Shown one piece after another: positions 2,498-29,700 of a stretch of 42,383 nt of DNA (the stretch's first letter is position 1; the number at the start of each line of letters is the position of its first letter). The notes beneath the pieces were generated by a model. It was not told the origin of the DNA, did no database searches, and worked only from the letters and a program-made list of their open reading frames with translations. The stretch comes from Catajapyx aquilonaris (lineage: Eukaryota), in the NCBI GenBank assembly GCA_000934665.2, contig JYFJ02000159.1, positions 124,001-166,383 on the forward strand, read 5' to 3'. The position numbers were made by a program, and so were the translations under genes.

Positions 2498-5400
2498 ATG
2501 GAAAATCCTGCATTAATTCCCGACACTATTGCTCCGGAGGTAAGTCATTCATTCATTATCCAGCCCTGCCTTATTAGGATTAGAGTGCTAAAGCTTTGTC
2601 ACCTGCGTGCAAACCGCAAAAGCAACTGTACACAATACAATTAGCGAAATGTAACGTTGTTTAGCTAGCACAGAGGCCACTTACCGGAATGTACTGGTTT
2701 GGTATGACCGTGTGCGAAATATTAGTTAGCTATCCACTGGCACACATGGCCATTTTTGAGTCCCAGCATCGTATGTCTGGCACGACAACAACATTAGCCT
2801 ACTTTTTATCACAAAATATTGTGATAAGATTGCGAAACAATTTGAACTAGTTTTATTGACCTATCTGGTTATACAACGCAATATTCACTTAGCAACTTGC
2901 TGCTCTCATACATCGTAAATAGCAGACGGTATTCTCATGCGGATTGTTCATCGATTTGGAATGAGTTACGTATGACAATAACTCGTAATAAATATTCATC
3001 ATAATAGGCATGATAATGGGATAATCCTCGTCATCCTTTGCTTTCTGATTACTCAGACATTATTTTCAGCAAGAAGAAAACATCACTAGAGCAAATGTAG
3101 ACGTCAACTGCCAGGAAATAGAAACATCAGAAGGATCAAACACACATGAGACTTGGAATAAGCTTCTGTACACGGTGACTGAGGTGCCACCTTGGTATCT
3201 CACAATAATTCTAGCCTTTCAGGTATGGTACTTTGTAATAGTTTTGGTGTGGTGAGTCATTGACATTTCGATTACTTTATACCCAGCATATCTTAACCAT
3301 GATGGGATCAACAATCGCCTATCCTTTCGTGCTGGCTCCTGCTCTGTGCATGTCTGAAGATGACCCTGCAAGAGGAGAGCTCCTGTGCTCGATACTTTTC
3401 GCCAGTGGCATCATCACATTCTTGCAGACCACTTTTGGAGTCAGGTTACAACAATAATATTCCTCTTCATATATGTTTCATGTTTTCATGATCATGTTAA
3501 TCAGTATAACACTGCCGATCCTCCCATAACTTATTGTGCTCATTGCACTTCCCAGGTTACCAATAGTTCAGGGCGGAAGCTACGCGTTTGTCATCCCGGT
3601 TCTGGCGATTCTTGCGTTGCCCGAGTGGCAATGTCCAAAAGACATAGACAAGATGGATAAGAAGAGCCGCGATCAGCTGTGGATGGACAGGACAGTGGTC
3701 ATGCAGGGTTCTCTTGCAGTCGCTTCTGTGGTGCAACTAATCATAGGCGCATTTGGTAATTAAATAGAGTACGGTACACCATGAATCGGCTGCCTTTTTG
3801 TGTACCCAAATGCAGGTATGGTAGGTGCTATACTTCGCTTCATGACTCCTTTGACCGTGGCTCCTGTCATAACCATGGTGGGTCTCACATTCTTCCCGAA
3901 AGCCAGCTCCATGATGGCCGAAAACTGGCCCGTCTCTCTCACGTGAGTTGGTGCCAATTACCGATTGAGCCTTTGCCTGAATACATTAATGTGCAGGACT
4001 CTTGTGCTGGTGACACTCTCATCGCAGTACCTTCCGAACGTGGGAATCCCTCTTCCCTACCCCAGAGAAAGGCCAAGAAGTCGGTTTTATATCTTCAAGT
4101 TCTTCCCTGTATGGTATTGACATATTTCTCATATTAATCAGTGTTGTAAGTGCTTTTCTGTACAGGTGCTGTTATCAATTCTAACCATGTGGCTAGTGTG
4201 CGCATTGCTGACCATCTCTGGTGTCTTGCCAACCGACAGCCTCATTCGCACAGACAGGGCCACTTCGCTTATACAGCAATCTCCTTGGTTTCGCGTACCA
4301 TACCCAGGTACACCCATCCTTCAGCAGCATACGACGTTGCAAATTTCTCGCAAATTTTTTTCTGGCATTGGTAGGTCAGTGGGGACTTCCTGTAGTCAGC
4401 ATTAGTGCTGTGGTGGGCTTATGGTCTGGAACTATCGCAGCCACTGTTGAATCTGTTGGCGACTACTTCGCATGTGCTCGGCTTGCGGGTAAACACTGAC
4501 TTGTTCGAGATGTGCAATGTTTCTTCTTCAGGGTATTAAGCTCTATAGTGCAATTTGCCGCAACCAATTGCAGGGGCACCAGCACCTCCTGTACATGCTA
4601 TCAACAGGGGAATTTTGGTGGAAGGTTTCGGATGCATCCTGGCTGGAGTATGGGGTTGCATCATTGGAACTACCAGCTACGGTGAAAACATCGGAGCCAT
4701 CGGTATTACCAAAGTGAGTGTGCATCTGCTGTCCTCGTCTTCACTCTGGGTAATCGTCTTGATTGCTCCGCAGGTTGGTAGCCGTCGAGTAGTACAGGTT
4801 GCTGGTGTTCTTATGGTGATTCTCGGGACATTTAACAAGCTGGGTGCAGTCTTTGCCACTATTCCAGAGCCAATTATTGGAGGAATGTTTTGCGCATCTT
4901 TCGGCGTAATTACTACTGTAGGTTAGTGTCAACTACAGTGTTAGATGAGGCACTGAAAAAATGACCTGACATTCTACCACATTCTTTCAGGCATTTCAAA
5001 TCTTCAGTACGTGGATCTGAATTCTTCGAGAAATATGTACGTGTTTGGAGTGTCCATTATGTTAGGACTGGTGGTTCCCCAATGGATTGCCGGAAATCCT
5101 GATGCTGTAAAAACCGGATATGAAACGTTGGACCAAATTCTTATCATACTAATGAGCACTGGGATGCTGATATCTGGTATCGCTGGTTTTTTTCTGGACA
5201 ACACCATTCCAGGTGTGCTTCGCAACGTTAAGCAATGCATGAATAAGAGATTAAATATAAACTCAGATTAACGCAGCATATTTTAATACCTATGTACAGG
5301 TACAGCCAAGGAGAGAGGTGCGCTGTACTTGTCCGAGTCAAATGAGGAGACGAAAAGGAATTGTGCTGAAACTGAAAGTTACAATTTGCCGTTTGGAATG

Positions 5401-5606
5401 GACTATATTAACAGGTACTGTGGATATGGAAATGTTGTTATTATGTTTGTTGCAGAACAGGATGATCGGCAATTTTACATGTCTGTTTCACCATTTACAG
5501 CCATACGTGGACGCAGTTTGTGCCATTATTTCCGGGATACAGAGGATGGCGACATTGCTTCAAAAACTTAAAATGTAAAGTGACAGAGGATGACACAGGT
5601 TTATAA
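2498..5606 (+). CDS. SLC23A-like: SLC23/NAT family nucleobase-ascorbate transporter, copy 1 (13 coding exons, 592 aa)
   Basis: Exons 2498-2539, 3070-3222, 3287-3444, 3556-3755, 3816-3942, 3997-4108, 4166-4307, 4375-4488, 4574-4713, 4774-4921, 4991-5212, 5300-5414, 5501-5606. All introns are GT-AG; 1779 nt, open frame. Motifs: [45 protein letters not shown] signature [44 protein letters not shown]. Ends DTGL*. AATAAA at 5665. Confidence 0.95.
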
Positions 5607-6799: not shown

Positions 6800-9700
6800 A
6801 TGGAGAATTCCACTTGCAGTCATAACTTGGAGGTAAGTGTGCAACTAAGAATCAAAGTAATGTGTCTGACCACTGTTATTCGACCTGGGACTAAAATTCA
6901 TCAATTTTTATCGTTTTTGACAAATCATGCGGAAGTGCAAGTAAGGAAAGTCGTATTATTCACACTTAGGGAGTTGACGGGCCCATATCTTGCATCCGCA
7001 TCCCAGAAGACGCACTGAAGAAGAAAGAATCTCAGGCACAAATAATAAAGTTTTTGCGATTCACACTGGATGACATACCACCTTGGCCTATGACCATTTT
7101 GCTTGGCTTTCAGGTAAGTTTCAACACATTGGCGTGCATAAGTTAACGAGAATTTCCTGTAAATCAGTACAATGTACAACAAACGCACAAATTGTAGGCA
7201 TTGTATAAAGAGTTGTAAACTCAGTGTATCGTAATGCAACGTATGTATCCTCTGTAGATGTTCTTAGCAATGATGGTCAGCACCATTTCGGCGCCTTTCG
7301 TGTTGGCCCCTACATTGTGCATGGCTGAGGATGACCCTGCCAGAGGATACCTCCTTTGCTCGATCCTCTTCAGCAGTGGCATTGCAACCACTCTACAAAG
7401 CACGTTGGGAAACAGGTACAACCTCGTACAACCACTTCTTAGCATACTTTTAACGTCACCTGTTGTCTTCGTAATTCAGGTTGCCGCTAGTTCAGGACGG
7501 AAACACAGCTATTATAATCCCGATCTTAACTATCATGGCTCTTCCGGAATGGAAGTGCCCCGCAGATTTAGACAGTCTTGATCAAGGCACCAGAGATAAG
7601 CTATGGATGGAGAGAACTGCTCTCATGCAAGGATCTCTGGCTGTGGCTTCCCTTGTGCAAGTTTTCATCGGGGCTTTTGGTAAGAACAGTCCAAGGGGGG
7701 GGGGGGGGGNGGGGAACTACTTGGTTAATAATTTACGGGACTGATTAATTAGAATCTATACGTACATACTAATCTAGATTTATAAAGTTGTTTTTCCTTA
7801 ACAACAAACCTATATAACCGCCTCTAGTCAGCTCATATGCCTTTGTCCTTTAATATGCAGGAGTGGCAGGGTCCATCCTGCATTTCATATCGCCGCTGAC
7901 AGTGGCACCCGTCATCACTGTGATGGGCCTCACTTTGTTCCTCAGGGTGACTGTGATGATGGCCAAAAATTGGGCAGTTTCCATTGTGTAAGTCTGATAG
8001 TGTGCAGGCCGCATGCAACTCTCAACGTCATTATCATCGTGCAGTATGGTTAATCTATTTATTAATTCCATCCTCATTGGAAATCACATATGAAAGTGTA
8101 AAAAATCCGCGACTACGTTTTTTCCAATCAAAAGTACAACATGTAAAAGTTGTATTCAATATTCCCAACTGAAACTGGCCTCGTTCAAAAGTTGCATGCG
8201 ATAAAAGAGATGTTTACTCATGCAATTAAAGCGGTTCTATCTCCTCGTCGTTATAGGGCTCTCGTGTTGGTGACGCTTTCCGCCCAATATCTTGAAAACA
8301 TAGGAATTCCCATGCCTAACTTCTCTGCAAATAAACAGAAGAGAAGTAAATTCTACTTGTTCAAGTTCTTTCCGGTAACTTATTGTTATTTAAAATCAAT
8401 TCTCTAATGACTTGAACCTAAGATGAACTGCGCAAGTAATTCATTTCAAATCCTTTCAGTTCCTATTGGCTATGATGCTGACATGGACCATCTGCGGTCT
8501 TATGACTGTATTTGACATTTTGCCTTCTGATAACCACGCGCGTACTGATCGCACAACATCTCTTATTAACCATTCTCCGTGGTTCCGTATACCATATCCA
8601 GGTAAGTCCTTACCTGCAACCACCTGACCTTATATTTTGCACTTTTCGTCGCTTGCGGGCTAACATTAAACTGTGTGTATGTAAGGATAGACAACTTCTC
8701 TAAATTCAACCCTCGCTTTTCAAAGGTGAGTGGGGGATTCCTACTGTCAGTGCAAGTGCAGTGATTGGCTTCTTGGCCGGAAGCGTCGCCTACTCTGTCG
8801 AATCTATTGGTAACTACTACACTTCAGCCAGAATTTCAGGTATGCCGATTCGCATTATGCTTGGTTCAGAGTGTACGACTTGTGCCATGTCCACAGGAGC
8901 TCCTCCACCGCCAGTGCATGCGATCAACCGAGGCTTGATGGTGGAAGGCCTGGGTTGTGGCATGTCCGGTCTATTCGGAGGACTCAGTGGTACTACCAGT
9001 GCTTGCATCAGCCTTGGCACCATCAGCATTACCAAAGTACAGTGATGTACAGCAATGTAATGTAATCAGTAGCTTACTTTTGATTTGTTTCATTTACGTG
9101 CGCAGGTGGGAAGCCGTCGAGTGATTCAGGTTGCAGGTGTCATTATGGTGTTCTTTGGAACATTCAGCAAACTGGGTGCTGTCTTTTCCACTATCCCAGA
9201 GCCAATTATCGGAGGAATCCTATGCGCCACCATTGGAGTAGCTGCCTCCATAGGTACTGTGCACGTGCTGTACTATCGGTCAAACATTATTTTTGGAAAA
9301 GTACTTATTCGCTTTACTCTCTTGACATTGCAGTTGTCTGGTTTCAGACCTTATAGCAAAATATATCGAGATTTTTTGGCAATTTTGCATTATGTCACGG
9401 AGAAACACTATACGTCTCAATACACTATTTCTTTAGGTGTATCAAACCTCCAGTATGTGGAAATAAACTCTTCGCGGAACCTCTTCATATTTGGAGTGAG
9501 CCTAATGGTTGGCTTGGTGGTTCCGCACTGGGCAATCGAAAACGCCGGAGCCATTAAAACTGGCTACACAGAGTTGGACACCACTCTGACCATTTTGGTC
9601 AGCAACGGCATGCTGATATCTGGACTTCTTGGAGTGACGCTGGACAACACTATTCCAGGCGAGTGACTGCCATTGCGAACATTTTATCTGGGGGTGATCC

Positions 9701-9974
9701 CGGTTATCCAATTCTGTCAATCATTTCAGGAACTGCAAAAGAAAGAGGAGTCGAAAGATTTCAAAGGCCGACTCATGCTACTGCAGATAATTCGTCTCTC
9801 GGGAGCTACGACCTGCCATTTGGGATGAAATACATCAAAAGGTGACACTCATTTTTTGCTGTGCTAGTACAGCCAGAGTCACATTTGTAAATTATTTTCT
9901 ATAGGCACAAGTGGACTCGATATGTTCCGATTCTTCCTGGATTTCAAGGCTGGAGCGCTTTGTTCAGAAGATGA
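6800..9974 (+). CDS. SLC23A-like: SLC23/NAT family transporter, copy 2, divergent substrate pocket (13 coding exons, 575 aa)
   Basis: Exons 6800-6832, 6970-7113, 7258-7415, 7480-7679, 7861-7987, 8257-8374, 8460-8601, 8726-8839, 8897-9036, 9106-9253, 9437-9658, 9730-9841, 9905-9974. 1728 nt, open frame. Core exon lengths (158, 200, 127, 142, 114, 140, 148, 222) are identical to copy 1. Intron 9659-9729 is GC-AG. Scaffold motifs are kept (PPW, PWFRIPYPG, HAINRG, VGSRR, NSSRN, LDNTIPG, YDLPFGM); the signature is altered to TTSACISLGTISITK. Confidence 0.92.
7695..7714. repeat. Poly-G tract containing an ambiguous base (n at 7710)
   Basis: G15-n-G4 in intron 4 of copy 2. True length is uncertain and this may be an assembly join. 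Confidence 0.9.
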
Positions 9975-10189
9975 CCGTGCTGTGCCACGCAACAATGCTG
10001 GAACAACTCTAACAACTATCTATGGCCGTCAACATTTGGAAGGCTAAATTGCAATGTGAAAAATTCCATGTAACTTGAGCATAAAGCATATCAGTCTCAT
10101 CATAACACTAGACACTAGAGATATTTTGACATAAATTGCTAAATACGTAACCTTGCAGATTTGAGTGAACTCAGTTTCAGTGCTGGCTG

Positions 10190-10530
10190 TGTTTCCACCA
10201 AATTCTCCCACGTAATGTCGAGAATGGCTTCCGAACCCGATCCTGGCATCCACAATCTCTGTAAGATAAACTGTGAGTAAGGGGGGGCCAAGAAAGGCCA
10301 AGGCCAGATGAGTGTCAGGTAGCAGAGTCTGCGCCGGTCTGCGTCTGAAAACAATGAATTGACAGGGTCCAAGGAAGCATGTGACACAAGCAGTCAAGTG
10401 CAGAAAATGGAAGGAAGTGGTCGTGCTGGAATCAGGCCCGGGAGTCAAAGCTATCCGGCTATTGTTGAAGCCGTGGCTCTGATCCAGTGTCAAGGGCAAG
10501 GTCAAGGGGCTCACTATCAACACCCAGAAG
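10190..10530 (-). mobile_element. Decayed non-LTR retrotransposon (LINE) reverse transcriptase fragment
   Basis: Minus ORF 10044-10553 contains LTLDQSHGFN...SFHF...FLGPPLLTVYLTEIV...HYVGE. The spacing resembles RT motifs LDxSKAFD...LGPLLFxxYxxD...YADD, with catalytic residues lost. Boundaries are approximate. Confidence 0.5.
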
Positions 10531-11134
10531 TAGGTAAATGACTGTCCGAACACAGGTGAAGCCGACCGGACACAGTCAGGTAGAAATTATTGTTTGGTGT
10601 CTTCGCTTGCAGTCCAGTGTGATGGTGATCCTATCTGTAAAACTTGGTATGACCTAAATCTGAATTGCGATGGTGGTTGAAAGTTATGTGCCGCTGATTG
10701 CCGGGGAAAAACCGCAGCAGACTGATTCTCAAGAGCCGCTTTGTTGCCGTCTGAAAAGTCCCCAATTCGTGACTTCTGCTAACCCTAACAAGCATGGAAC
10801 ATTTGGGAAAAACATACCGTAAGGAAGGTGATGATTTTTCTTCTTTACCAAAACGAGTTGACGTGTGCAAATGGAATGCGGCGGCAACAACACAGAACGG
10901 CAGTGGTGGTTGGCTGCGTCGAATTGTTTCACATGGCGAGTGAGAGTAAGCCAGGCACGAATAAAATTATTGAGGGTACTAGTAGTACACAATCATGCAT
11001 TATGAGTTTACATGGTGTTCTGCTGTTCCAGTATAAAAATAGTTTTAAAACGTTTTCTCCCAAGCAAAAAACGAAATACCAAGTACAATCAGTCATGCAC
11101 ATTCACATGTAACAAAACCACGCACTAATTATAG

Positions 11135-11362
11135 CAGTGGTTTCCAACCAGGGGGTCGCGGGCAGGGTGTCGGGGGGATCGCGAGCCTTGGTTAAACTTT
11201 TTTTGGGTGCAATTTCCGTGTCTATTGAACAATTTTTGCGGCCGTACAGAGGGTACGTTTTCTGGAAAGGGGGCAGTTGTAGGTGGGGCCGGGGGGGGGG
11301 GGCACATTAATGGAAACATGTCAGTTTAGGGGGTCGCAGTTGGTAAAGGTTGGAAACCACTG
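11135..11362. mobile_element. hAT-type non-autonomous DNA transposon (MITE), 228 bp
   Basis: Perfect 15-bp TIRs CAGTGGTTTCCAACC (11135-11149) / GGTTGGAAACCACTG (11348-11362). Perfect 8-bp TSD AATTATAG (11127-11134 and 11363-11370). Subterminal GGGGTCGC motifs. Confidence 0.93.
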
Positions 11363-12053
11363 AATTATAGACTGATATTATACAGTATTATACTGCACAG
11401 TACATTCAACCAAGGAATGGTATACCCTGTACGACCTTAAATAGTAGGCTATATACTGTAGCTGCAGTACAGTTCTACTTGGTTCTACTGATGCTTGCTT
11501 GATGCAGGATGCGTTTATACCTTGTGTCAAGTAGCAAGTTACGAGTACATTATTAATAAGGTGTCACCGACTACACAAATGTGACACTATGAAAGGCCTA
11601 TAGTAATGTAACACAAATCATAAAAGCATCCACAAGTTAGATTACCTTGTTGCCATTCCGCACTTCAGCGATTCAGTGATCCATTGTGACTGCTGTCCTC
11701 CCGAAATAATGCACGCATCAACAAAGAGAAAATAAGAGCGATGCAGGGATTAAACAAACCGGAATTTAAAAAAAATACCTGGATGTCTGCATGCAAGGGA
11801 GTGGTTGTGGGAGGGTTGGCAGTCACATTCTCGTACCTTGTGTACTTGCAACAGATCGCGTGCACATACTATATTAGCTGGGTTCTACCCCAGAGAGAGG
11901 AGCAGCCCTTCACTCGTCAGATCGGAGGCGGACACGACGCGGTGTTGTTGTTCATATACCACAGCACCGCACAGGCCTTGGTCTGGCCTAAATGGCCAGA
12001 ATTTGACAGCGTGTCGAGCACAGTACGTGTGTACAGAAGGGATTTCAGGTTCC

Positions 12054-15000
12054 ATGGACAATCCTGCATTTCACCTGAACTCGGAGGTTAGTCCTGTTGT
12101 TATTACACTGGCAAGTCAGATCCATTGTCAGCGAATGCGATTGCGTTTATTTCATAAGCGATACGACACAATGCAAAGTCTCAATACTGATATTGTTGCA
12201 TTCCTATATGGCCGTAGACTCGGTATTTAGTACCTTACAGAGTTACATTTCTGCTGAGATAGGATACAAAAATTATGTCACAACCCAAGGGAAATCACTC
12301 GGAAAGGAGATATACAACAATGGTGCTATGCTGATCAAGTCATCTCTTGCCCATTATTTTATGTCAAAAAAGCGGGATTGTGCTTACGAGTATTTCAATC
12401 CCTTGTACAGTTTCACTAAACAAAGTGCTTGCGTGATCAGCATGATCATTAGGTTGTAAAAAATATATATATACCCGTCACTATAATGCCCAAATTAGGT
12501 GCCACGCATAATGATAAACACGCCAGGTGTGATAGCCAGTTCATTTGTTGTTTCTGAAAGATTCATGAATGAAGCCTACTGCTAGTACTGCATAGGTTAA
12601 TTTGTAAGTCACTAAATCACAGAACATACCGCCATGAATTGATGAATAAATTAATAGAAGCCAGTGGCTGCCTCGTTGCGCAACAATGACAGTGCCCATT
12701 ACAATCGGCTGATCACGTGACAAATTGCATGGCATGTGAATGTTGCCTTCTCTTTGTGCACATCACTTTATTGATGTTAGTACAGATATATAAATACCAC
12801 GCTGAGCGATCAGCTGTTGCATAGTAAAAGGAGAGCAGTCAGAAGCATTGCGGACGTCCGTGTGCAAATAATGTAAGTGCCTCCTGCAAGTGTGTAACAA
12901 CCTTCACAGCACAGGTAAAAAAGGCAATATTCCATTATCCGTCCAGATATACGCCTGCAGATTACAAAGCACCACCTACTACTTTTGTAAGAATATATGA
13001 GTGTTCAACAAAGTAAATGGGGAATGTTTTCAGGGAGGTGATGGAGGAAACGCTATTGATGGTTCAGCTTCCAACCAGTGTCACGTGAATCCTAAAACTT
13101 CATTGGATGCGGAAGAAGGAAAAGAAGTGAAACAACAGGTGATAGGACTGCAATACTATGTGGACGACATACCACCATGGCCTCTCACATTTGTCCTCGG
13201 ATTTCAGGTACCATAGCACTCTTACATTTTATTGCAGGATATTTATGACTGTCCCTAAATCCGCGCCAATATCATAAAAGGCGTGACAGAAGTATTCAGT
13301 CGCTAATAAAATATTACCACAAAAATGCATGCGCTTCTAGCTGCGTCTTAAAATGTTTTGGCAAAATTTTTGACATTATGTCGATAGCATTTTCTGACCA
13401 TGGTGGGCAGCACTATAGCAACACCATTTGTGTTGGCCCCTGCCCTCTGCATGACCGAAGATGACCCCGCCAGAGGATATCTCCTCTGCTCCATCCTGTT
13501 CATCAGCGGGCTCATCACCGTTCTGCAAAGCACTGTTGGAGTCAGGTGACACAGTAATCCGCCACATACGATGCGTATATAACATTTCAGTTTCGCAGGT
13601 TACCCATAGTGCAGGGCGGAAGTTTCGCCTTTCTGATTCCAATCATGGCCATCCTCGCTCTGGAATGGAAGTGTCCGGACGATTTGAGCAAACTGGACGA
13701 AGCGGCCAGAGAAAAACTTTGGGTCGAGAGGACCCTAGAGATGCAAGGAGCTCTTGCAGTGGCCTCCGTGGTTCAGGTGCTGATGGGGGCATTCGGTAAG
13801 GTTAGAGCCCTCGAGACCTTGGGGTGCCAATAATATATGTTTCCTCGAATCCCAGGTGTGGTTGGTGCTATTTTGCGCTTTATTACACCTTTGACGGTAG
13901 CACCTGCTATCACAATGGTGGGACTCACTTTTTACCCCACACTCGGAACCATGATGGCTAAAAGTTGGACTATCTCGATTTCGTAAGATTCAACTTTTTG
14001 CTAATAAACATAACTAGTGTATTCTGAGAATTTTTTTCTCTCGACGTTGTAGGACATTGATCTTGGTGACATTGTCGTCGCAGTATCTACAGAATGTTGG
14101 AATCCCTTTGCCGAACTGCTCCGATGGACCCAAAAAGAGGCTTTATATCTTCAAGTTCTTTCCGGTATATACAGAAGTGTAAATAACGTAAAGGGCATTG
14201 CATTAAAGCTGATTTCTCTAGGTGCTGATAGCAATGTTGGCAATGTGGCTTCTGTGTGCACTGCTGACCGTCTTCGACGCTTTGCCATCCGACAGCCCAA
14301 TCAGGACTGACAGAACGTCGTCTCTCATCCATCAATCGCCTTGGTTCCGGATGCCTTACCCTGGTATTTTCAAACAATAGTGCTCAATGTCCAGAACTTG
14401 CTGAATTGTTTGATATGCATTGCAGGTCAGTGGGGTCTTCCTACCGTGAGCGCCAGTGCAGTCATCGGCGTCTGGGCTGGAACCATCGCTTGCACCGTCG
14501 AATCCGTTGGCGACTACTTTGCGTGTGCTCGAATTTCAGGTGAATTGCACACTCATAGTACATTCCTGAGAAACAATGCTTTTCTTAACCAATATGTTGC
14601 AATATTCAGGGTCTCCGACGCCACCTGTGCATGCCATAAACAGAGGCATAATGGTGGAAGGATTAGGCTGTATCCTGGCTGCTCTATGGGGAGGAATTAA
14701 CGGAACTACCAGTTACTGCGAAAACATCGGAACCATCAGCGTCACAAGAGTATGCTCAACATGTGGGTGGTAAATTATTGGGTATATTATTCTGTCCATT
14801 TTATGCCCACAGGTGGGAAGCAGGCGAGTTGTGCAAGTCGCGGGTCTGATCATGATGGTCATTGGAACCTTTAGTAAATTGGGAGCTCTGTTTGCGACCA
14901 TTCCAGAGGCGATTGTTGGAGGCATATTCTGCGCCACTTTTGGAGTTGTCATCACTGTAGGTCTGTCACACTGCAGCGTATAAGGCGCATTAAAATGCAG

Positions 15001-15879
15001 CTAAAGTAACTTTCGTAATTACAGGGATTTCCAACCTGCAATCAGTTGACTTGAATTCTTCGAGAAATCTGTTCGTCTTTGGGGTGTCGATCATGATCGG
15101 GCTAGTGGTTCCTAACTGGGCCAAAAAGAATTCAGAGGCGATAAAAACAGGATCAGCTGAATTTGACCACATTGTCACCATTCTGCTCAGCACTAGCATG
15201 CTGCTAGCTGGACTCGTCGGGTTTGTTCTGGACAACACTATTCCAGGTTCGTTCTTCATTATTCCTAAGCACTCCCTACAGGTATTCCCTTGAAAAGTTT
15301 TATTTCGTAATCTAACTGGTTTCACATATTGTGCATCTTTGCAGGAACCAATGAAGAAAGAGGACTCGCTCAATTTGCCCAACAGTCTGCAGATGACGAA
15401 GATGGCTCAGTGTACTCAAGTTACGACCTCCCATTCGGAATGAACTACATTAAAAGGTGACATAAACACTACAATACATAGATTCGTTACAAGCTAATAT
15501 TTTGAACGTCTGTTTTTAACAGTAAACTTATCCTCGACCACTTAGTCAAAAGTGACTCCAACCTTATATAGAAAGTAAAACAATTAAGACATCCTAAAAC
15601 ACTAATAAGCTACAGTATTTCCATAAAAATATGAAACGACAAGGGCGCGCTACAGATATCATATGCCTTTTTGTTATAAGGTCATGATTTTATTAAAGTG
15701 AAAACAAATGCCCTGTAAATGATGTTAGTTGATACATAATGATAACTTGTTGTCACTCTTGATTTTTTAGCCACAAGTGGATTCGCTACGTGCCCATCAT
15801 TCCTGGATATAAAGGCCTCGATTTGTGCGGAAGATTCCGGCGCTTAATTACTAAGAAGAATGAAAATGTGGTTTTCTAA
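12054..15879 (+). CDS. SLC23A-like: SLC23/NAT family transporter, copy 3 (13 coding exons, 595 aa)
   Basis: Exons 12054-12086 ([11 protein letters not shown]), 13034-13207, 13388-13545, 13599-13795, 13856-13982, 14053-14164, 14222-14363, 14426-14539, 14610-14749, 14813-14960, 15025-15246, 15345-15456, 15771-15879. All GT-AG; 1788 nt, open frame. Motifs [43 protein letters not shown]. Ends NVVF*. The first exon is assigned by similarity to the other copies and by phase. Confidence 0.93.
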
Positions 15880-16149
15880 TTTTAAAATTTTATAGGTTAT
15901 CCAGTACAAAAATCCTTGCCATCATTGTGAAAACTGTAATATTTTTGTAGGGCGGATTTTTGTTGCACTTTTGAATAATTATGAATGCAGAGGAAACTTC
16001 GTGGAGATGACCACAAGAACTTTAATTATTTAAAAACTGCCATATTTTTTTAACCTGGCAGAAAAAGGATGTAAGTTATGGGCACAATGAGTGCCACCGT
16101 TATACAATCAATGTAATCGCAATAAATCAGTTTCTAATTTTAAGAAGTG

Positions 16150-17435: not shown

Positions 17436-20400
17436 ATGGATAATCCTACCTTCCAGCTTTCTGTTCCTAAGGTCAGTGTTTTCTTCCTCTTAAGCGCATG
17501 CGTTTATTTTTAAGTTGCTGGGCAAAATATGTCGTTTACTATTAATTACTAATAGTAGGACTTTATAACTAAGGGGTGTTGCAAGATACAGCACAACGTT
17601 CAGCATCTGCTTGGCTTGACATAACGTTACAATGCATTGCACAATCCGTATCCTCGTGGAGGTCCCAGAGTTGACAGTACGTATAGAGGCTACACCATAT
17701 CAATGTAAATATATATGCACATAATAAAATATTATAATCATGTAGTATGACTGTCACTTTAGAGCACATATCCTTCAAAAAAAATATGTCCCTTATTTTT
17801 GATAATAATTGGTGTTGCAATTGCTGACCACAAATAAAACTGAAACTGAATAATAACATGAAGCAGGTGCTTCTCCAAGACTCACCAATATTGCTGGATA
17901 ACTGGAACCCTTCCTGAGTCTTTTGTCTGAGTAAATTCTGGCGAAGCAATATCACATGGCAGAGAATATCTCCAACCATTTCTCCAACCGACCCCCAATC
18001 AACAACACTTCTGACCCAGTTGACCCACGCGCGATAAATGTTTCCAACTACTGGCTGAAGAGTTAAAATTTAGTGTCCTGCACGAATGAATACTTTTCTG
18101 AGACGGGGATTGGCTTGTGGCATAATCTCAGGCCAAGAGAGGACTGCATGAATACAGTGAGCTTCTCAGTTGTGGCCAAGTCATGGAGATGCTGACAAAC
18201 TCTAAAAATCACGAATCACCATCCCCCGAAATTGTAACTGTGAGTATACATCTGCAATATAGGACGCGACATTGGATTTCATTAGCGAAACATGTGTAAA
18301 TTAGTAGGTGATTAAAATGGTACCAATTAATATTATGTAATTTTACCAGGTAATTTAGGTTATTTTGTGATTAAGAGCGATTTGATATTACCTGGCCAAG
18401 TAATTTATCACCTCTGAGAACAATTCATATTTGTAAAGTGTTCAATTATCATTACTTTAATGTATGATCAGCTGTTTTTATGTTACGTGAATAGAGGCAC
18501 TCGAAGCATCATGTGTGCAGTGTGCACACATAACATCTATGCAGTGCAGTGCTCAGATATGCATGTATGAGTTATCATTAACTCTATCTGAGTCGGAGGC
18601 TGTGCTAGATGATGGGGGCGTTATAATCACGGACGTCCTCATTTGAGGGCCGAACATCCAGATATTTCACTGCCATATTATGCAATAAGAATCTCATAAC
18701 GTCTCCTGATAGCAAAGAATAATCCTATAACTACTGCAACACTCGCAATGCTTGTGACAGCAGACTAAGTACCGTGTTATAGTAGCCGGTCCCATAATAA
18801 GTGGATTAATAAATACTGCAGACTACAGAGAGTGGCCCTTAGACCGAGCAAAGAAGTGTAACGCGGCATAAAGTGTCATTAACATACAGTGTCCCATCTG
18901 ACAGGTACTCAACAAGTTTGCATGGTTAAATGGTAGACGAATAAGTGCTACGTACTAATTCTGTATTTGACCTAAATTATGTGTCTATAGGAAGATGGAT
19001 TGGGAGACGGTGCGACGAGGGAGAAGCCATCAGACACGGTTGAAATAGCCGACCCTGAAGAAGAAAAACAGGAACAAAATGATTCTGGGATGCTTTACAG
19101 CATTGAAGACACACCTCCATGGCTCCTCAGCGCACTTCTTGGATTGCAGGTAATTTTAAACCACCTGTAACTCTGAATTTGTCTAAACAGCTGGTGCATT
19201 TTTGTAGCATTTCTTGACCATGGTTGGCGGAAGTATATCCGCACCATTCATCCTGGCCACGGCTCTGTGTATGTCTGCGGAAGACCCTGCCAGAGGTCAG
19301 CTCTTGTCGACAATTTTGTTCGTCAACGGCATGATCACAGTCTTTCAGAGCACACTCGGAGTAAGGTGTGTCCGGTGCACGACTTTCCTCTCACATAATT
19401 ATTGTTCAACCCGTCCTATTTCTGCAGGCTGCCCATCATTCAAGGAGGAACGTTCGCTCTGGTTATCCCAATTCTGGCCATTCTTTCCCAGCCAGAATGG
19501 CAGTGTCCAGTGGACCTGGAGGAGCTGGACGCAGAAAACAAGACGTTGATTTGGACATCTCGAGTTCAGGAGATCCAAGGCGCCCTGCTGGTGGCGTCTC
19601 TTCTGGAAATATCTCTTGGAGCTTTCGGTATGCTGCGATACATCTATGCCTATATTTTGAAAACTAATGCTGTCGTACTTTTTCAGGAATAGTAGGTGCT
19701 GCACTTCGTTTTATTACGCCACTGACGGTGGCTCCAGCAATCACAATGATCGGACTGGCACTGTTTCCGGTGGCTGGAAAGATGTTGGCTGAGAATTGGC
19801 CAATTTCAATCGCGTAATATATTACTAAATCCAATTATATAGCCTACCAGAGGGTGCAATGCCAAAGGTCCCAGTTCAAGAGGGTGATACGTGAATAATC
19901 TACATGGATTATTTACCCAAGTCAGCGATTGAAAAAGAAGAAGAAGAACAATCACGACATAACAATGTGTCATGTTTGTTGCTTCTCTTCAAACTGGCTA
20001 CGGCGGTTCGAGTAAACAATCATGGCTTCTGTGCCTATCCTGGAAACTTCGGCAATGAATGACCCTGTATTAAGCTGTACCGGTATCACATCAATTATTG
20101 ATTTAGTAATCTGCTGACTTTCGCAGGACCATGATCTTGGTGACTCTGCTCTCTCAGCATCTCCATGGAATATGGCTCCCGTGTCCATTCACCAGCAGAC
20201 GATTCCCAATCTTCAAGCTGTTTCCAGTGCTCTTGTCCATTATGATCATGTGGGGAGTGTGCGCCATACTGACGGTCACGGACGTCCTCCCACCAAACAC
20301 CTCTACAAGAACGGACCACAAATTGGCAATCCTCCATGGCACCCCCTGGTTCCGTGTTCCCTACCCTGGTATGGCCATCGGGACACCAAACGACCAGTTG

Positions 20401-23100
20401 TCACAATGTATTGTCCATTTTCAGGTCAATGGGGTGCTCCGTCGGTGAGTGTCGGTGCAGCTGTTGGGCTTATGGCAGGGCTATTGGCGTCTGCAATAGA
20501 GTCCATAGGGGACTACTACGCATGTGCACGTATTGCAGGTAGATTACATTTTCATGGCCTCCTATAGCTTACAGACATGAGATGTAACACAAACCTTGGC
20601 AATGAATTCATCGCTCACATTAATCACTTGTTCTATCGGGTAATTCAATTTTTTGTCATTACAACATTGCAACAATTACAGTAGAAGTAATGAATCAACC
20701 AAAATTACTATTTCTTTTCTAGTGTGATTTTTGAAGTGTAATTATCGCATATAGGGGCGCCTCCACCGCCGGTACACGCCATCAACAGAGGCATCTTCAC
20801 AGAAGGAATCGGATGCTTCATAGCAGCTCTGTTCGGCAGCATCAATGGAACCACCAGCTTCGGAGAGAACATAGGGGCCATCGGAGTTACCAAGGTCTGT
20901 GGACTTACCCAAAAATGTGATAAGATGTTTCGCGCAGATGGTGATGGTCCACGCTTTGCAGGTTGGTAGCCGAAGAGTGGTGCAGATCGCCGGAGTGGTG
21001 ATGATGGGCGCTGGTATGTTCAGCAAACTGGGTGCACTCTTCGTCACCATACCAGAGCCAGTCGTGGGAGGTGTCTTTTGCGTCATGTTTGGAATTGTAA
21101 CTGCTGTTGGTCAGTGTACTGCACATCTTCCGATTAACGTTACGAAACTCGATTCCATTTTCAACCATATATTAGTGTCACTTATTCACATTACAGACTA
21201 CGGGTGGAATTTTCATCCCATTGCTAGTTACTGCGAATAAGTTAGCAGTAGACCTACCTAGCAGTGGGATTAAAATTCACGAGCTTATCATACACCGTTG
21301 CCATAATGAAGCCTATTAAAATGACCATTTATATTGCAGGAATATCGAATCTTCAGTTCGTCGATCTTAATTCTTCTAGAAATATTTTTGTGTTTGGTCT
21401 TTCCGTTTTCCTTGGGCTGGTGAGTATAGATATGAGTTTGCATATTTTCATTCCTTTCCTTTCTTAGACATACTTACTCCTGCCTCTAAATACGTGTGTA
21501 TTTTATGCACACAAATAAGGCTTTATCGAAGTCAGTTATGCAGCGGTGCTCCTGAAAATACATTAAAATTAATTTTAAATCAACAATATATTTGATTGAA
21601 AATATTCACATTATTATTACCTATACCTACACTATTAATTTTCCAAAAACCGTAACAATTGGGTCAGAAGTGACAGCCATGAATAGAAAACTTTCACGCA
21701 ACGAAAGGTAGCCTACCCTATATTAAGTTTATCAAAAATAGCAAATGTGGTTCGACGAATTCGTTTTCATTTTAAAATTCAATACATACACTTATCAAGC
21801 TAAATCGGTATGACTCTATGTTGTAGCCATTGTGTTGCCGAGAATCAGATTCATGAACATGTGGCGAGTACTCTATGCGAGACTCTATGCTGGTCTATTC
21901 GTAACGCTTAACTGACTTCGCTGTAACTAGAAAATATCCAATAGGCTATATTATTACACCAGTTTAACCTGAAGGTACGCTATATGTTTTGTATTTGTTC
22001 ACGCTGCTGATGCGATATTTATTAGAGCAACCTACACACAATATAGGTCTACTATACTGTATAGTATAGTCTACGTTGCCTCTTAGCGTAAAGTAGGCTA
22101 AATCCATAAACAAATGAAGAAATCAGCGTCACGTTCAGGCATAAAAATAATCCCGCTGTTTTGTTTAGTTGGATATTATATAGCCTATCATACGGCTGTA
22201 TTTATATTATATTCAGGTATTTATATTGGATAGGCCTATTTCCAGTTACATTGTTGCCGTTGTCGAATGTTATTGCTTTGGTACCCATTTTTGGTAGCAG
22301 AAATTTAATGACAGCCAATATATTCTGGCATGAAATTTTTTTACCAAAAATCGCCCGAATCCATAACATTATCAATACTCTTAATGTGACTGGCAATGAC
22401 CCTATTAACATTCTGGCATTGTCTCAACTGTACTGCTTTCTATGAGGGCCAAATGGCATCACCTCTTTACCATTGTTATTGTAACTTGATCAGTACCGCA
22501 AAAACAACACAATAATGTTACACCATCTACATCTTTGCAAATCTGACTAAACGCATACAGGGGGCAACGAAACGGCTGTGAATATTATTTGCACGAGTAA
22601 ACCTTAATAAGCGCATGTGGTAAGTCACAAACACCTGTCCTCCTCAGACTATTCCACAATGGTTCAAGAGCAATCCTACAACTCTGAACACCGGCAGCCA
22701 GCACGTGGACCAAGTCATCTCAATCCTGCTCAACACCAGCATGTTCATCGCCGGATTTACCGGATTCCTTCTGGATAACACCATTCCAGGAACGGCCAAG
22801 GAACGAGGAATCATTGCCTGGCAAGAGCACGGTCAGGTCGACCAAACCGACCCCCTAAGTGAACCCGTCACTTGCTACGACCTCCCCTTTGGAATGAACT
22901 GCTTGAGAAGGTACAGCACATGTGCCTCACATATCCTGTGACAGAGGCAACACTTTCGACATCTAATCTAAATACCAATGCTCATTCACGTGTTTCCTTA
23001 CAGGCACAAGTGGACTAGGTGGATCCCCATATTGCCTGTTTTTACCGGATGGAAGGTGCGATCATCATGCAGACGCAAACGAAACTCTAGACCAGTTTAG
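17436..23100 (+). CDS. SLC23A-like: SLC23/NAT family transporter, copy 4 (12 coding exons, 587 aa)
   Basis: Exons 17436-17471 ([12 protein letters not shown]), 18991-19149, 19208-19365, 19428-19627, 19687-19813, 20127-20368, 20425-20538, 20755-20894, 20962-21109, 21340-21419, 22648-22910, 23004-23100. All GT-AG; 1764 nt, open frame. Motifs [70 protein letters not shown] at 23164. Confidence 0.94.
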
Positions 23101-23569
23101 GGCGTGTGAAAAAAGTAGTGTTGTAACGATGTGTATATAAAAACTCATGCTATATTTGTGCCAAATAAATACTCTAATAGTTGCCTATTTTAGACTCTGC
23201 ACTCATATAAGCAAGTACAGTACCTATCCCAGATATAGTAGTATTGAAGATTATTATAGAGATGTACTATATGGCGCCATTTGCTATATAGTAACTGGCT
23301 GATTTGTATCAGCCAATGTTATACCCCAAGTAAGGAGGCCTTCAAATATGACACGAATTTGTCAACTCAAGTCACCATAACTAGGATCAGGCGCCAAGAC
23401 ACTGAGCTTTATTCTCCTCCAATTGTCGCAATAAGAACCGCAAAACAACGATAGTCGGTCCAGAACCTCGCTCCCTCTGTCCACCGTGACACATATCAAT
23501 ATCCATTTCCCCCTGACAAACAATCTGTTTGCTCAAAGCTCTGGCCCGGCGTATCATTTATCCCACACT

Positions 23570-26149: not shown

Positions 26150-26725
26150 GACACATGATGCAGTTCATCACATGACTCGTGATTAACTCACTGTACGATA
26201 TGTTATTATTTAATAATAATCACGCCTAATCCGCAGATAATGTAACTTGTCATCAAGTTTGACCGGCTCAGACCTAGAACTGCCAACGCAACATCCAACC
26301 ACCCATACATCAGACCCAGTGAACCCATTTTTTCTATTTAAAAAAAACGCCCAATCAATATCACAAAATCGTCAAAAAAACATCCCGGGTTCACGACACG
26401 GTCCCACACGTGAACACAGGCCCGGTTATAGCGGGTTAGAGGGTTGGGTCAAAGTACTGTCCCCCCCTGACGTCAACAGCCTTTCAAATATTAATATTCC
26501 CCTTCATATAAAATTTTCCCTCTCCCCCCAACCTCCTCCTTACCCCCGCCCCCCTCAATTTCTCTCTTCGGAGGCCCGCCTGGAGAAAGCCGCAGTGCGC
26601 AGGCGCTTATCCTGACTACAAATCCTGCACGCGCGCTACGTTCGACCTTACTCGGCGCCTTCTGCCCACAAGAAGATCTTCTTCTGCTGCCTCACACACA
26701 CCCGATCAACCACACGCAATCCGCA
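26150..26725 (+). promoter_or_regulatory. PHGDH proximal promoter / 5'UTR (CpG-rich, no obvious TATA box)
   Basis: CCAAT 26351, E-box CACGTG 26407-26412, full CRE TGACGTCA 26468-26475, GC box CCCCGCCCC 26544-26552, NRF1-like TGCGCAGGCGC 26596-26606, ACTACAAATCC at about 26615. Motif matches only. Confidence 0.5.
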
Positions 26726-29700
26726 ATGGCCGTTGAGATCAGGAGTGTCCTCATTAGCGACCCGGTTGACCCCCTCTGCTCCAAAATCCTAGAGGATTAT
26801 GGCATCACCACGGTGCGACGAAGCAAGCTGTCCACCAACGAGCTCATCACCGAGTTGCAGGTGAGTCTGCTTATTAATATAGCGATATTGCCTAATTTTA
26901 TAAGCATTGTGTCAAATGAATGAAACTGTTAGTCTCAAGCTAGCCCATTCAAATGTTGCGTCTGTTTTTATGCAGCACCACGATGGACTTATTGTCCGTT
27001 CGGAGACCAAGGTAACCGCCGAGGTTCTGAAGGCAGTACCAAACCTGAAACTGATTGGACGCGCTGGAACTGGAGTTGACAATGTCGACTGCGACGCTGC
27101 TACTCGTCATGGAGTACTCGTCATGAAGTAAGTTCAACCGTTGCTAATTATGAAGGGTTTCTGCATGCCTACAGTTATTTACTGAGTAGCTCCTTGTCTT
27201 GGGATCGACACGGATACTTTATAGAACAATCAAGCAAAAAAAAATCGTTAGTGATAAAAACACAGGAATGAAAAGTATACAGCCTCGATATTACGTTATT
27301 GCTCCACGAACAGCTTCATTAATTCTAAACTACAGTGTATCCGGTAACATGGTTTAATTGCCCTTCCCATACACCACGTGAGTGCTTCGTTTGAGAAGGC
27401 AATTTTCAATGAATCTGAATAGATGTTCCTCTATGTATCATGTTAGCCGTGTCTTTAATTCATGCAAGAAAATAAATCACGCCATATAGTTGGCAGTACG
27501 ACAGCCTGGATTGATTCATTAATAATATACTCGTATCTATAGAATATAGGCCTATTCGTTGTGATAGGTTCGGGAAATCTAGATGAGCTTAACAAGCCTC
27601 GGACTTCCCAGTGATAGCCTTGATCGCCGTTTATAACATGTAAACAAACGTTGCAATATGCATCGGAGCTACTTTTATCAGCTTAGCACGCACAATGGGT
27701 TATCGCGTTTGTGAGGGTTGGGGGAGGGGGAGGGGGGTCCGAAGAAGGTGACCCTTCGGTGGGCCAAACCTCCTTATCACGAAATACCCCCTGAGATATG
27801 AGGCGTCTTTTTTTTTTTTTTGAAAAATATGATTGCACGTGTAATAGGCTCAATTTTTATTATGTCAAGCGCAAGGGCGGCCAAGGGCAATTCATCATCA
27901 GTGTCCTTCAACATGATATGCCAAGGGCTGAGGAATGTAAAAAAAAGAACATCAAATTACAATTCTCCTGAAGTGATGATAGGCCCCAAAAAGGAGGGGG
28001 TTCATGCCAGATTCACGTGACTTGGACATCTCTCTGGCTCCGAAAAGTCTCAGATGGTTGCATTAGGTGAGCTCGTGACCAAGTCTTGCCTTCAAAACAC
28101 GTAGAGCGTGTTTTGCATACGAAATGATGCTGAGAAGGAACAGCCGGATTGCCAAGAACACCCGGAGGCACATGTGGAACCGGAACGCGTAACCGCTTTT
28201 TCTGGTTAGAACCGGCTAAGTCCTCACCTATGCCCTCTTGGTCATTAACTAACATTCTCTCTCTCACTTTTTTTTTGTCTGGTTCTCTCCTGGGACCCGC
28301 TTTCCAATGTGGGACCCTCTTGGCACGGGCCACCGTCTTGCAGTACACGATACAGTTACACACAATGTACCCTGCGAGATGGGATGATTAAAGCATTGAC
28401 CTTCTCAATTAACGTGGAGCTTGCTGTGCAAATGTTGCAAATTATTAGGCTCCACATCTCGTATGCGCTGTTGTGCTACTACTAAAATAATAAGAAAACG
28501 AGTAGTACAAATGTAATATAACATCATTTACTGCAAAATGAATTGGAGCGCAAACATGTTTGCAACAAGAGTAGACAAGAGTGTCATCCAACCTCTCATA
28601 AAATTCTAGCAATTTTGTACCGAGTGACCTGACAAAATGCTTATAGCAGGCCAGGCTGCTGTTTGAACAAAGGGAGAGAAAGTATTGCAACGTAGGATGG
28701 AGTAAAAGCCAATGACCCTGTAAATCGAACACCCTTCTCTTGCCATCAGTATGAGTCACTAAGGCGCAAATGACAGCATTCCATTCTTGATGCATGCAAC
28801 AATTCATAAAAGGCTGCCCAGTCAACATCCTTTACGATGCTATAATCTACATGCACATGCCCCATTAACAGAAAAGACGTCAATGAAGTAAAATGTAAAT
28901 TTGTAATTTTTTCCAGCACCCCTGGAGGCAACACTTTGAGTGCTGCAGAACACACCTGTGCCATGATCTCTGCCCTGGCCAGGCACATCCCACAGGGCTA
29001 CAAGTCCCTCAGTGAAGGCGAATGGAACCGCAAGGCATATGTGGGGTCAGAGCTCTATGGAAAGACCCTGGCCATCTTGGGTCTGGGTCGCATAGGAAAG
29101 GAAGTCGCCACACGCATGCAGGCTTTCGGCATGAAGGTATGGTCAAGGCAATAGATAACAACTAGAATGATAACCTCAAGAGATAAAATGTACCCCCCAA
29201 CAAAAAGCAGAAAAGGAGGGATCCCAATATTGGAGATACAATTACCATCTAGAATGATCATATTCATAGAAATTTTATTTTTTTAAACCACAAATCTGTC
29301 AGGTATTTTTTACTGACCTGCCTCATTGTCACTTCCAGACCATCGGATATGATCCCATCATCCCTGCAGAAGTAACCCGTGAATTTGGTGTAGAGAAGAT
29401 GGAGCTAGAAGAAATTTGGCCTCAGGCTGACTTCATCACTGTCCACACTCCCCTCATTCCTCAGACAAAGAGTAAGCATAGGTTACCAATATAACAACAA
29501 TGGTTTAAAAATTTAAACACCACAAATGTATCCTAATTAGCCAACTTATTTTCCAGACCTCCTGAATGACACTGTATTCGGCAAGTGCAAGCGTGGTGTC
29601 CGCATTGTGAATGTGGCCCGTGGTGGAATCATTGATGAGCAAGCCCTCCTGCGTGCCCTGGAGAGTGGTCAGTGTGCAGGAGCAGCCTTGGATGTATATG

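Follow-up and report, generated by a model that had tools for sequence, protein, structure and literature searches.

What becomes of a transporter gene that stays intact while most of the residues lining its binding pocket are exchanged is the question raised by a stretch of the Catajapyx aquilonaris genome (assembly GCA_000934665.2, contig JYFJ02000159.1, positions 124,001 to 166,383), referred to here as the window and 42,383 nucleotides long. The window is eukaryotic, its genes are spliced, and a tblastn search of it with our model of the gene in question found four genes of the SLC23/NAT family lying in tandem, head-to-tail, all on the + strand. We call them copies 1 to 4. Copy 2 (6800–9974, +) is the second of the four paralogs, with 13 coding exons and 575 amino acids, and it is intact, old and under purifying selection. 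The SLC23/NAT family is a model for substrate shifts in elevator transporters, such as that from nucleobases to ascorbate, and copy 2 may be a further case in which the transported solute has changed.

The initial annotation of this DNA had listed five motif changes in copy 2, and all five are present at the positions given, on the + strand. In transmembrane segment 1 (TM1), Gln-His has become Gln-Met, with ATG at 7258–7260 against CAT in copies 1, 3 and 4, a difference of three nucleotides; the Met codon opens exon 3 and the Gln of the motif closes exon 2. The loop and helix start of TM3 read QDGNTAI (7493–7513) as opposed to QGGSYAF, QGGSFAF and QGGTFAL in copies 1, 3 and 4, which puts a new Asp at mouse SVCT1 Ala116 and a Thr at the substrate and gate Phe (mouse F119, human F112). 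TM8 carries ESIGN (8800–8814) where the paralogs have ESVGD, ESVGD and ESIGD, so that the Glu is kept and the Na1-binding Asp is replaced with Asn (GAC to AAC). The NAT signature in TM10 is SACISLG (8998–9018), compared to SYGENIG, SYCENIG and SFGENIG in copies 1, 3 and 4; here Tyr/Phe is replaced with Ala, Glu/Gln/Pro with Ile and the invariant Asn with Ser, while the downstream Gly, Thr and Lys are retained. Finally, both Phe residues of TM12 are gone from GGILCATIG (9211–9237), one being Leu (9220–9222) and the other Ile (9232–9234) in LCATIG versus FCASFG, FCATFG and FCVMFG, and the Ile site corresponds to human SVCT1 Phe436.

Residues were mapped by alignment to human and mouse SVCT1, and mouse numbering is used throughout (human numbers are mouse minus 7). 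The map places Met at position 58 of copy 2 (His in copies 1, 3 and 4), Asp at 116 (Gly in the paralogs), Asn at 118 (Ser/Thr), Thr at 119 (Tyr/Phe), Asn at 345 (Asp), Ser at 384 (Ile/Asn), Ala at 389 (Tyr/Phe), Ile at 391 (Glu), Ser at 392 (Asn), Leu at 393 (Ile), Leu at 439 (Phe) and Ile at 443 (Phe). Glu341 is shared by all four copies, and the Cys at 390 is also found in copy 3, with Gly in copies 1 and 4. Of eight key pocket and gate positions (58, 119, 341, 345, 389, 391, 392 and 443), seven are changed in copy 2 and only the TM8 Glu is kept.

The roles of these positions in known NATs are taken here from the cited papers. In mouse SVCT1 the substrate is contacted by Cys62, Thr66, Ser117, Phe119, Thr387 to Ser390 and Pro391, and the Na1 ligands are Glu341, Asp345, Ser390 and the carbonyl of Ser388; E341A, D345A and S390A each abolish transport, and Asp345 is the equivalent of UraA His245 (PMC10011568). 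The extracellular gate of human SVCT1 is formed by Phe112 stacked on Phe436, with Phe112 also holding Na2 through a cation-pi contact, and the dimer is held by Gln448, Asn453, Asn230 and phenylalanines of TM13, its loss lowering transport (PMC11219872). In UapA the binding site consists of Phe155, Glu356, Ala407 and Gln408, while Gln85, Glu356, Asp388 and Asn409 are termed irreplaceable and a hydrogen bond pairs His86 of TM1 with Asn409 of TM10 (PMC3405029). Copy 2 has replaced both partners of the His86-Asn409 pair (PMC3405029) and both partners of the Phe112-Phe436 stack (PMC11219872). By alignment it retains the dimer-interface residues that correspond to human SVCT1 Gln448 and Asn453 (PMC11219872).

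We compared these positions with two sets of relatives, one being the best 150 of the 625 representatives (E <= 1e-3) that an exhaustive search matched to the copy 2 piece 8728–9036 and the other the best-listed 120 of 802 word-index matches to a copy 1 piece. Merging the sets, which had 3 members in common, and excluding nine additional cluster members gave 267 animal SLC23 proteins and fragments; residues were counted by local alignment and the fragments do not all cover each site. No relative has more than two of the eight key positions changed, and only five have two, as opposed to seven in copy 2. Position 392 is Asn in 259 of 259 aligned relatives and never the Ser of copy 2. Position 345 is Asp in 261 of 264, the remainder being Tyr in one and Asn, as in copy 2, in two. 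The other residues of copy 2 were found in none of the relatives aligned: Ile at 443 (Phe in 146/147), Met at 58 (His in 87/95, Gln in 7 and Ser in 1), Thr at 119 (Phe/Tyr in 89/104), Ala at 389 (Tyr/Phe/Ser in 255/262), Ile at 391 (Glu/Gln/Pro in 245/259) and Asp at 116 (Gly/Ala/Ser in 104/104). The loss of two acids and the gain of an Asp in TM3, both proposed initially, are thereby borne out, with TM8 Asp changed to Asn, TM10 Glu to Ile, and Asp standing where all 104 aligned relatives have Gly, Ala or Ser. Neither the exhaustive representative search nor the search with the copy 1 piece returned relatives closer than ~45–55% full-length identity. Pattern searches of metagenomes with the pieces 8728–9036 and 9439–9657 gave 392 and 256 matches, none of which was confirmed. 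Single departures occur elsewhere, as a few other animal SLC23 sequences (P0092, P0105 and P0065) have Asn or Tyr at the TM8 Asp position and keep the Glu-Asn of TM10.

Membership of copy 2 in the NAT/NCS2/SLC23 family is clear from PF00860 (Xan_ur_permease), against which eight exon pieces were scanned. Three matched and two of these exceeded the gathering score of 27 (8728–9036 at 36.4 bits and 9106–9657 at 59.4 bits); the piece 7258–7413 reached 18.9 bits, below the cut-off, and the five further short pieces had no match. The closest solved structures by sequence are those of mammalian SVCT1 (7ytw, 7yty and 8jew; E = 6e-17 to 1e-25 on exon pieces), and the alignment to these chains spans TM1–4 and TM8–14 with no large gaps. 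When we applied the motifs used to define a canonical NAT (PMC5972032), copy 2 departed from all three and is therefore not a canonical NAT: TM1 has Gln-Met in place of Gln-His, the TM8 motif reads Glu-Ser-Ile-Gly-Asn, with Glu and Gly present and the last residue Asn, and TM10 reads Ile-Ser-Leu-Gly-Thr-Ile-Ser-Ile-Thr-Lys, which differs at positions 1 and 2 and agrees at Gly, Thr and Lys. Nor is it of the ascorbate type of SVCT1 and SVCT2, which have Ser-Ser-Ser-Pro-Asn in TM10 and Glu, Asp and Ser at Na1, where copy 2 has Ser-Ala-Cys-Ile-Ser, Asn for the Asp and Cys for the Ser.

The gene model was built from the sequence, a table of reading frames and trials of splice sites, and the spliced translation was made from window coordinates. 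The spliced frame is open throughout, with no internal stop in 575 amino acids. Exons 1–7 lie at 6800–6832, 6970–7113, 7258–7415, 7480–7679, 7861–7987, 8257–8374 and 8460–8601, and exons 8–13 at 8726–8839, 8897–9036, 9106–9253, 9437–9658, 9730–9841 and 9905–9974 including the stop (all +). The 12 introns are 137, 144, 64, 181, 269, 85, 124, 57, 69, 183, 71 and 63 nt long; 11 are GT-AG and one is GC-AG. Eight exon lengths (158, 200, 127, 142, 114, 140, 148 and 222) are equal in copies 1 and 2, and exon 6 has 118 nt in copy 2 versus 112 nt in copy 1. The intact frame, splice sites and core exon lengths claimed initially are confirmed by these 13 open exons, with exon 6 as the only core exon to differ in length from copy 1. 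The interval first given for the gene, 7258–9253, is correct for exons 3–10, and the whole gene runs from 6800 to 9974.

The two ends of the model were placed by likeness to the paralogs. The first exon (MEN..., 6800–6832) resembles that of copy 1, and the last exon (HKWTRYVPILPGF...) is of a type found in all four copies, where a donor directly after "...IKR/INR/LRR" is followed by a short last exon of type HKWTRYVPILPGF that encodes a cytosolic tail, HKW-x-R-[YFW]-[VI]-P-[IL]-x-P (9905–9974, 15771–15880, 23004–23101 and ~5466–5606). This conserved donor overlaps an apparent in-frame stop, and a naive reading of the open reading frames (ORFs) ends the proteins ~23–37 residues early. The GC donor of copy 2 belongs to intron 11 (9659–9729, +; GCGAGT at 9659, AG acceptor), which has GT in copies 1 and 3 and is missing from copy 4. 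No GT alternative preserves the frame, and retention of the intron leads to a stop two codons on, past the last membrane helix. Introns 8 (8840–8896, 57 nt) and 10 (9254–9436, 183 nt) are multiples of three and free of in-frame stops; their retention would add 19 and 61 residues, respectively, without truncation, and the same exon-intron-exon read-through is seen in many database fragments from other animals. Intron 4 contains a run of G with a single N (7690–7716; N at 7711) that leaves the coding sequence untouched and is probably a weak spot of assembly or sequencing. We rejected an assembly artefact as the source of the oddities of copy 2, as the sole N and this poly-G run fall within intron 4.

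Copy 2 is an old gene. The topology recovered was (copy 4, (copy 1, (copy 2, copy 3))), with the four copies forming one clade (100/100 in a tree of 19 rows; Shimodaira-Hasegawa-like approximate likelihood ratio test, SH-aLRT, 99 in a tree of 31 rows). Over 494 aligned positions copy 2 shares 51–65% identity with its paralogs. Pairwise synonymous distances (dS) by the NG86 method are 1.8–3.4 and saturated, showing copy 2 to be old, and the pairwise ratios of nonsynonymous to synonymous distance (dN/dS) are 0.09–0.15; YN00 failed on 5 of the 6 pairs owing to the saturation. Under a two-ratio branch model of the Goldman-Yang type the dN/dS (omega) of the copy 2 branch was 0.16 versus 0.124 elsewhere, and omega = 1 on this branch was rejected (2dlnL = 40.3, p = 2e-10). 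Codon-model figures are rough at this level of saturation, and it is safe to say that the branch average is far below 1. The initial annotation had named a dN/dS near 1 as an outcome that would speak against its reading, and the value found is far from it.

Copy 2 has also changed faster than its sister. Its tip length is 0.55 compared to 0.23 for copy 3 in the 19-row tree, and 0.74 compared to 0.25 in the 31-row tree. In relative rate tests over 494 codons, the amino-acid changes of copy 2 and copy 3 stood at 74:38 with copy 1 as the outgroup (p = 7e-4) and at 68:25 with copy 4 (p = 8e-6); the same test for copies 1 and 3, with copy 4 as the outgroup, gave 40:35 (p = 0.56). Synonymous third positions at invariant residues showed no excess in copy 2 (34:36 and 37:30), and a higher mutation rate was therefore rejected as the cause of the long branch; the acceleration is in the protein. 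In a ragged alignment with 22 long relatives, 83 columns reach 90% conservation or more among these, and copy 2 is the sole exception at only 5 of them. In simulations of neutral change, which used substitutions only and in which indels would lower survival further, the share of runs with frame and splice sites intact fell from 15% at 0.02 changes per site to 2% at 0.04 and to 0.1% at 0.067.

We then asked where the changes fall. Positions at which one copy alone differs and the other three agree number 45 for copy 2, 17 for copy 1 and 12 for copy 3, and those of copy 2 are spread evenly over two blocks of the core and two of the gate (TM1–4 11/68, TM5–7 14/60, TM8–11 11/69 and TM12–14 9/48). 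The residue of copy 2 is unique among the copies at 9 of 16 pocket positions and at 113 of 478 others (one-sided Fisher p = 0.006), where the 16 positions were taken from the structure papers after the finding had been read and the test is not blind; copies 1, 3 and 4 have 2, 0 and 3 unique residues at these positions. All three nucleotides of the pocket codons 58, 119, 389 and 391 differ from every paralog. Codons changed at both positions 1 and 2 make up 15 of 494 in copy 2, four of them in the pocket (p = 8e-4), and none of those in copies 1, 3 and 4 is in the pocket. Such repeated replacement of pocket codons at an average omega of 0.16 fits directional remodelling, or constraint relaxed locally once the function had changed, and does not fit uniform decay. 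The proposal that pocket-concentrated changes suggest selection and not decay holds as far as the low omega and the pocket enrichment go, but the changes are also spread evenly across the blocks.

Taken together, we suggest that copy 2 is a canonical SLC23/NAT gene of nucleobase type that was duplicated long ago and retained by selection. Judging from sequence, it appears to keep the 14-helix elevator scaffold with its Gly- and Pro-rich motifs, together with Glu in TM8, Gln in TM1, Gly, Thr and Lys in TM10 and the residues of the dimer interface, while those that would serve the substrate, the coupling ion and closure of the extracellular gate have been replaced. Binding of a planar base or of ascorbate would be lost, along with the Asp of Na1 or of a proton relay, and since the substrate, ion and gate residues named above are replaced copy 2 would no longer be a canonical nucleobase or ascorbate:cation symporter. 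The predicted pocket would be wider and free of aromatics, small or aliphatic residues having taken the place of three of them (Phe to Thr, Tyr to Ala and Phe to Ile), with two of three carboxylates lost (TM8 Asp to Asn and TM10 Glu to Ile) and one gained at the start of TM3 (Gly to Asp). Copy 2 as a carrier for a different, probably non-aromatic solute, with its ion coupling altered or lost, is our leading reading, which we consider evenly poised between right and wrong.

Several points weigh against it. The geometry of the pocket and the placement of the new Asp are deduced from alignment, splicing (the GC donor included) is predicted, and the production of the protein, its transport activity and its solute are inferred rather than observed. 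A search for RNA sequencing runs with 6800–9845 listed none. A homolog search with the piece 8728–9036 found no ortholog of copy 2, as none of its 453 longer and 7 near-length candidates gave a score. The omega of the copy 2 branch does not differ significantly from the background (p = 0.32). Furthermore, in all domains and not in the pocket alone the protein has changed at two to three times the rate of its sister, a speed-up that also fits partial relaxation, and a short recent neutral phase may be compatible with the saturated dS and the simulations, a long one being excluded.

Of the alternatives, the one that survives best is that copy 2 is a transport-dead subunit that still folds. It would form dimers through its conserved gate domain, either homodimers or ones with the neighbouring canonical paralogs, and serve to regulate, chaperone or sense. 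The loss of seven of eight key positions, including the Asn that is irreplaceable in UapA, would be expected of such a protein, as would a scaffold under purifying selection, the retained Gln and Asn of the dimer interface, and the presence of canonical paralogs next door in a family where the SVCT1 dimer is reported to be needed for transport (PMC11219872). On the other hand, a mere scaffold would have no use for what copy 2 retains, namely Glu in TM8, Gln in TM1 and Gly, Thr and Lys in TM10, the gate positions evolve as fast as the core and the interface is thus not specially conserved, and no heterodimeric SLC23 was met in the literature covered. We regard a dead subunit as unlikely. A specific form, in which copy 2 is a pseudo-transporter, a dead protomer that selection maintains for pairing through the gate-domain interface with the adjacent canonical transporters and tuning their activity or trafficking, is doubtful in our estimation; if true, this family, in which transport needs dimerisation, would gain its first regulatory heterodimer.

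It is also possible that copy 2 is on its way out, silent or recently freed from constraint and open only by chance. Its protein branch is two- to threefold longer than that of its sister, residues essential elsewhere are lost, one donor is a non-canonical GC, and its introns are longer than those of copies 1 and 3. Against this, omega = 1 is rejected on its branch (p = 2e-10), all 13 exons are open, and the short C-terminal exon is conserved. The pocket codons took two or three nucleotide steps each, a process so long that a frame free of constraint would have broken meanwhile, and simulated frames were intact in only 2% of runs at 0.04 changes per site before any indels are counted. We consider decay improbable. 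Least probable is that copy 2, tolerating the substitutions, has kept the nucleobase or ascorbate transport of its neighbours, as the kept substrate-binding TM8 Glu, the rare Gln-Met and Gln-Ile versions of TM1 in mostly microbial NATs (PMC5972032), the low activity that remains in UapA D360A (PMC3405029) and the TM8 Asn of 2/264 relatives have to be set against the joint loss of the base-pairing TM10 Gln/Glu, both stacking aromatics and the invariant Asn. No more than two such changes are combined in any of the 267 relatives, and at several of these positions one substitution is enough to abolish UapA or SVCT1 transport.

Whether copy 2 is a transporter with a changed pocket or one of the alternatives, it had been proposed as an undescribed system, and this goes too far. 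Kourkoulou et al. (2018) describe SVCT3 and the fungal UapD-like proteins as non-canonical NAT groups whose substrate is unknown, so NATs that lack the motifs and a known substrate had already been described (PMC5972032). Copy 2 resembles vertebrate SLC23A3/SVCT3 in being fast evolving and in not keeping the motifs; SVCT3 is an orphan that is reported to transport neither nucleobases nor ascorbate (PMC5972032, PMC9233358). The two differ in that SVCT3 retains Gln-His in TM1, is without the TM8 motif and resembles ascorbate transporters in its TM10 motif, whereas in copy 2 the TM1 His is gone, Glu remains in TM8 and TM10 reads Ile-Ser. Copy 2 arose separately, within a lineage-specific canonical clade, in trees that held no SVCT3 sequence; with the same proviso, we rejected an SVCT3/SLC23A3 ortholog as a candidate, since copy 2 is sister to canonical copy 3 and has lost the TM1 His. 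The UapD-like proteins are similarly divergent NATs without the motifs for nucleobase or ascorbate transport and with unknown function (PMC5972032), but they are fungal, of an origin unrelated to copy 2, and are set apart here by their description.

Compared to the canonical SVCT4/SNBT1-like SLC23 proteins, represented by copies 1, 3 and 4, copy 2 belongs to the same clade and has the same intron positions, scaffold motifs and C-terminal exon, but is without His in TM1, Phe/Tyr in TM3, Asp in TM8, Tyr/Phe, Glu and Asn in TM10, and Phe in TM12. Mammalian SVCT1 has Ser-Ser-Ser-Pro-Asn in TM10, and has His, Phe, Asp, Asn and Phe where copy 2 has replaced them. In function, copy 2 either works like the known non-canonical orphans or is as opaque as they are. 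No tandem invertebrate SLC23 cluster with such a member was found in the literature searched. What is new here is the setting, namely an independent, lineage-specific origin beside a canonical sister together with the pairwise replacement of interacting residues. To our knowledge, SVCT3 and the UapD-like group, the known non-canonical members, are isolated lineages of old origin that offer no canonical relative close enough for comparison. Copy 2 has a canonical sister and two more paralogs next to it, at 51–65% identity, which keeps the replacements that separate the two states few and easy to read: two pairs of interacting residues were exchanged together, two carboxylates were lost and one was gained, and three aromatics were removed. 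If it is expressed, copy 2 would be a compact natural experiment on the ligand of a remodelled SLC23 pocket or on regulation by a dead protomer; if it is not, it would be an ordinary divergent duplicate.

The remaining members of the cluster are canonical paralogs. Copy 1 (2498–5606, +, 3′ end approximate) has QH, QGGSYAF, ESVGD and SYGENIG; copy 3 (13001–15880, +, first coding exon not located) is the sister of copy 2; and copy 4 (18991–23101, +) is the outgroup to copies 1–3 and has a different intron pattern. For all four, the closest named relatives come from Daphnia, a springtail (Allacma) and copepods (Tigriopus), whose SLC23 proteins are only 44–55% identical. The intron positions of copy 2 are those of its paralogs, exon lengths are mostly equal, and the scaffold motifs and the C-terminal exon are common to them. 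Copy 4 (20127–20368, 21340–22938) lacks introns 6 and 11 of the other copies, the sequence at both junctions being contiguous (FKLFPVLL at one of them), and its TM13–14 exon is split by a new intron of ~1.2 kb (21420–22647).

Between copies 2 and 3 lies a spacer of 3 kb (10044–12459) with several long ORFs on both strands, of up to 180 amino acids and with no Pfam match, which may be remnants of repeats or transposons. Downstream of the SLC23 cluster is a gene like that for D-3-phosphoglycerate dehydrogenase (PHGDH; 26700–30700, +), whose ORF pieces match PF02826 (2-Hacid_dh_C) at 80 bits and PF19304 (PGDH_inter) at 33 bits, and which could be used as a synteny anchor for finding the cluster in related genomes.

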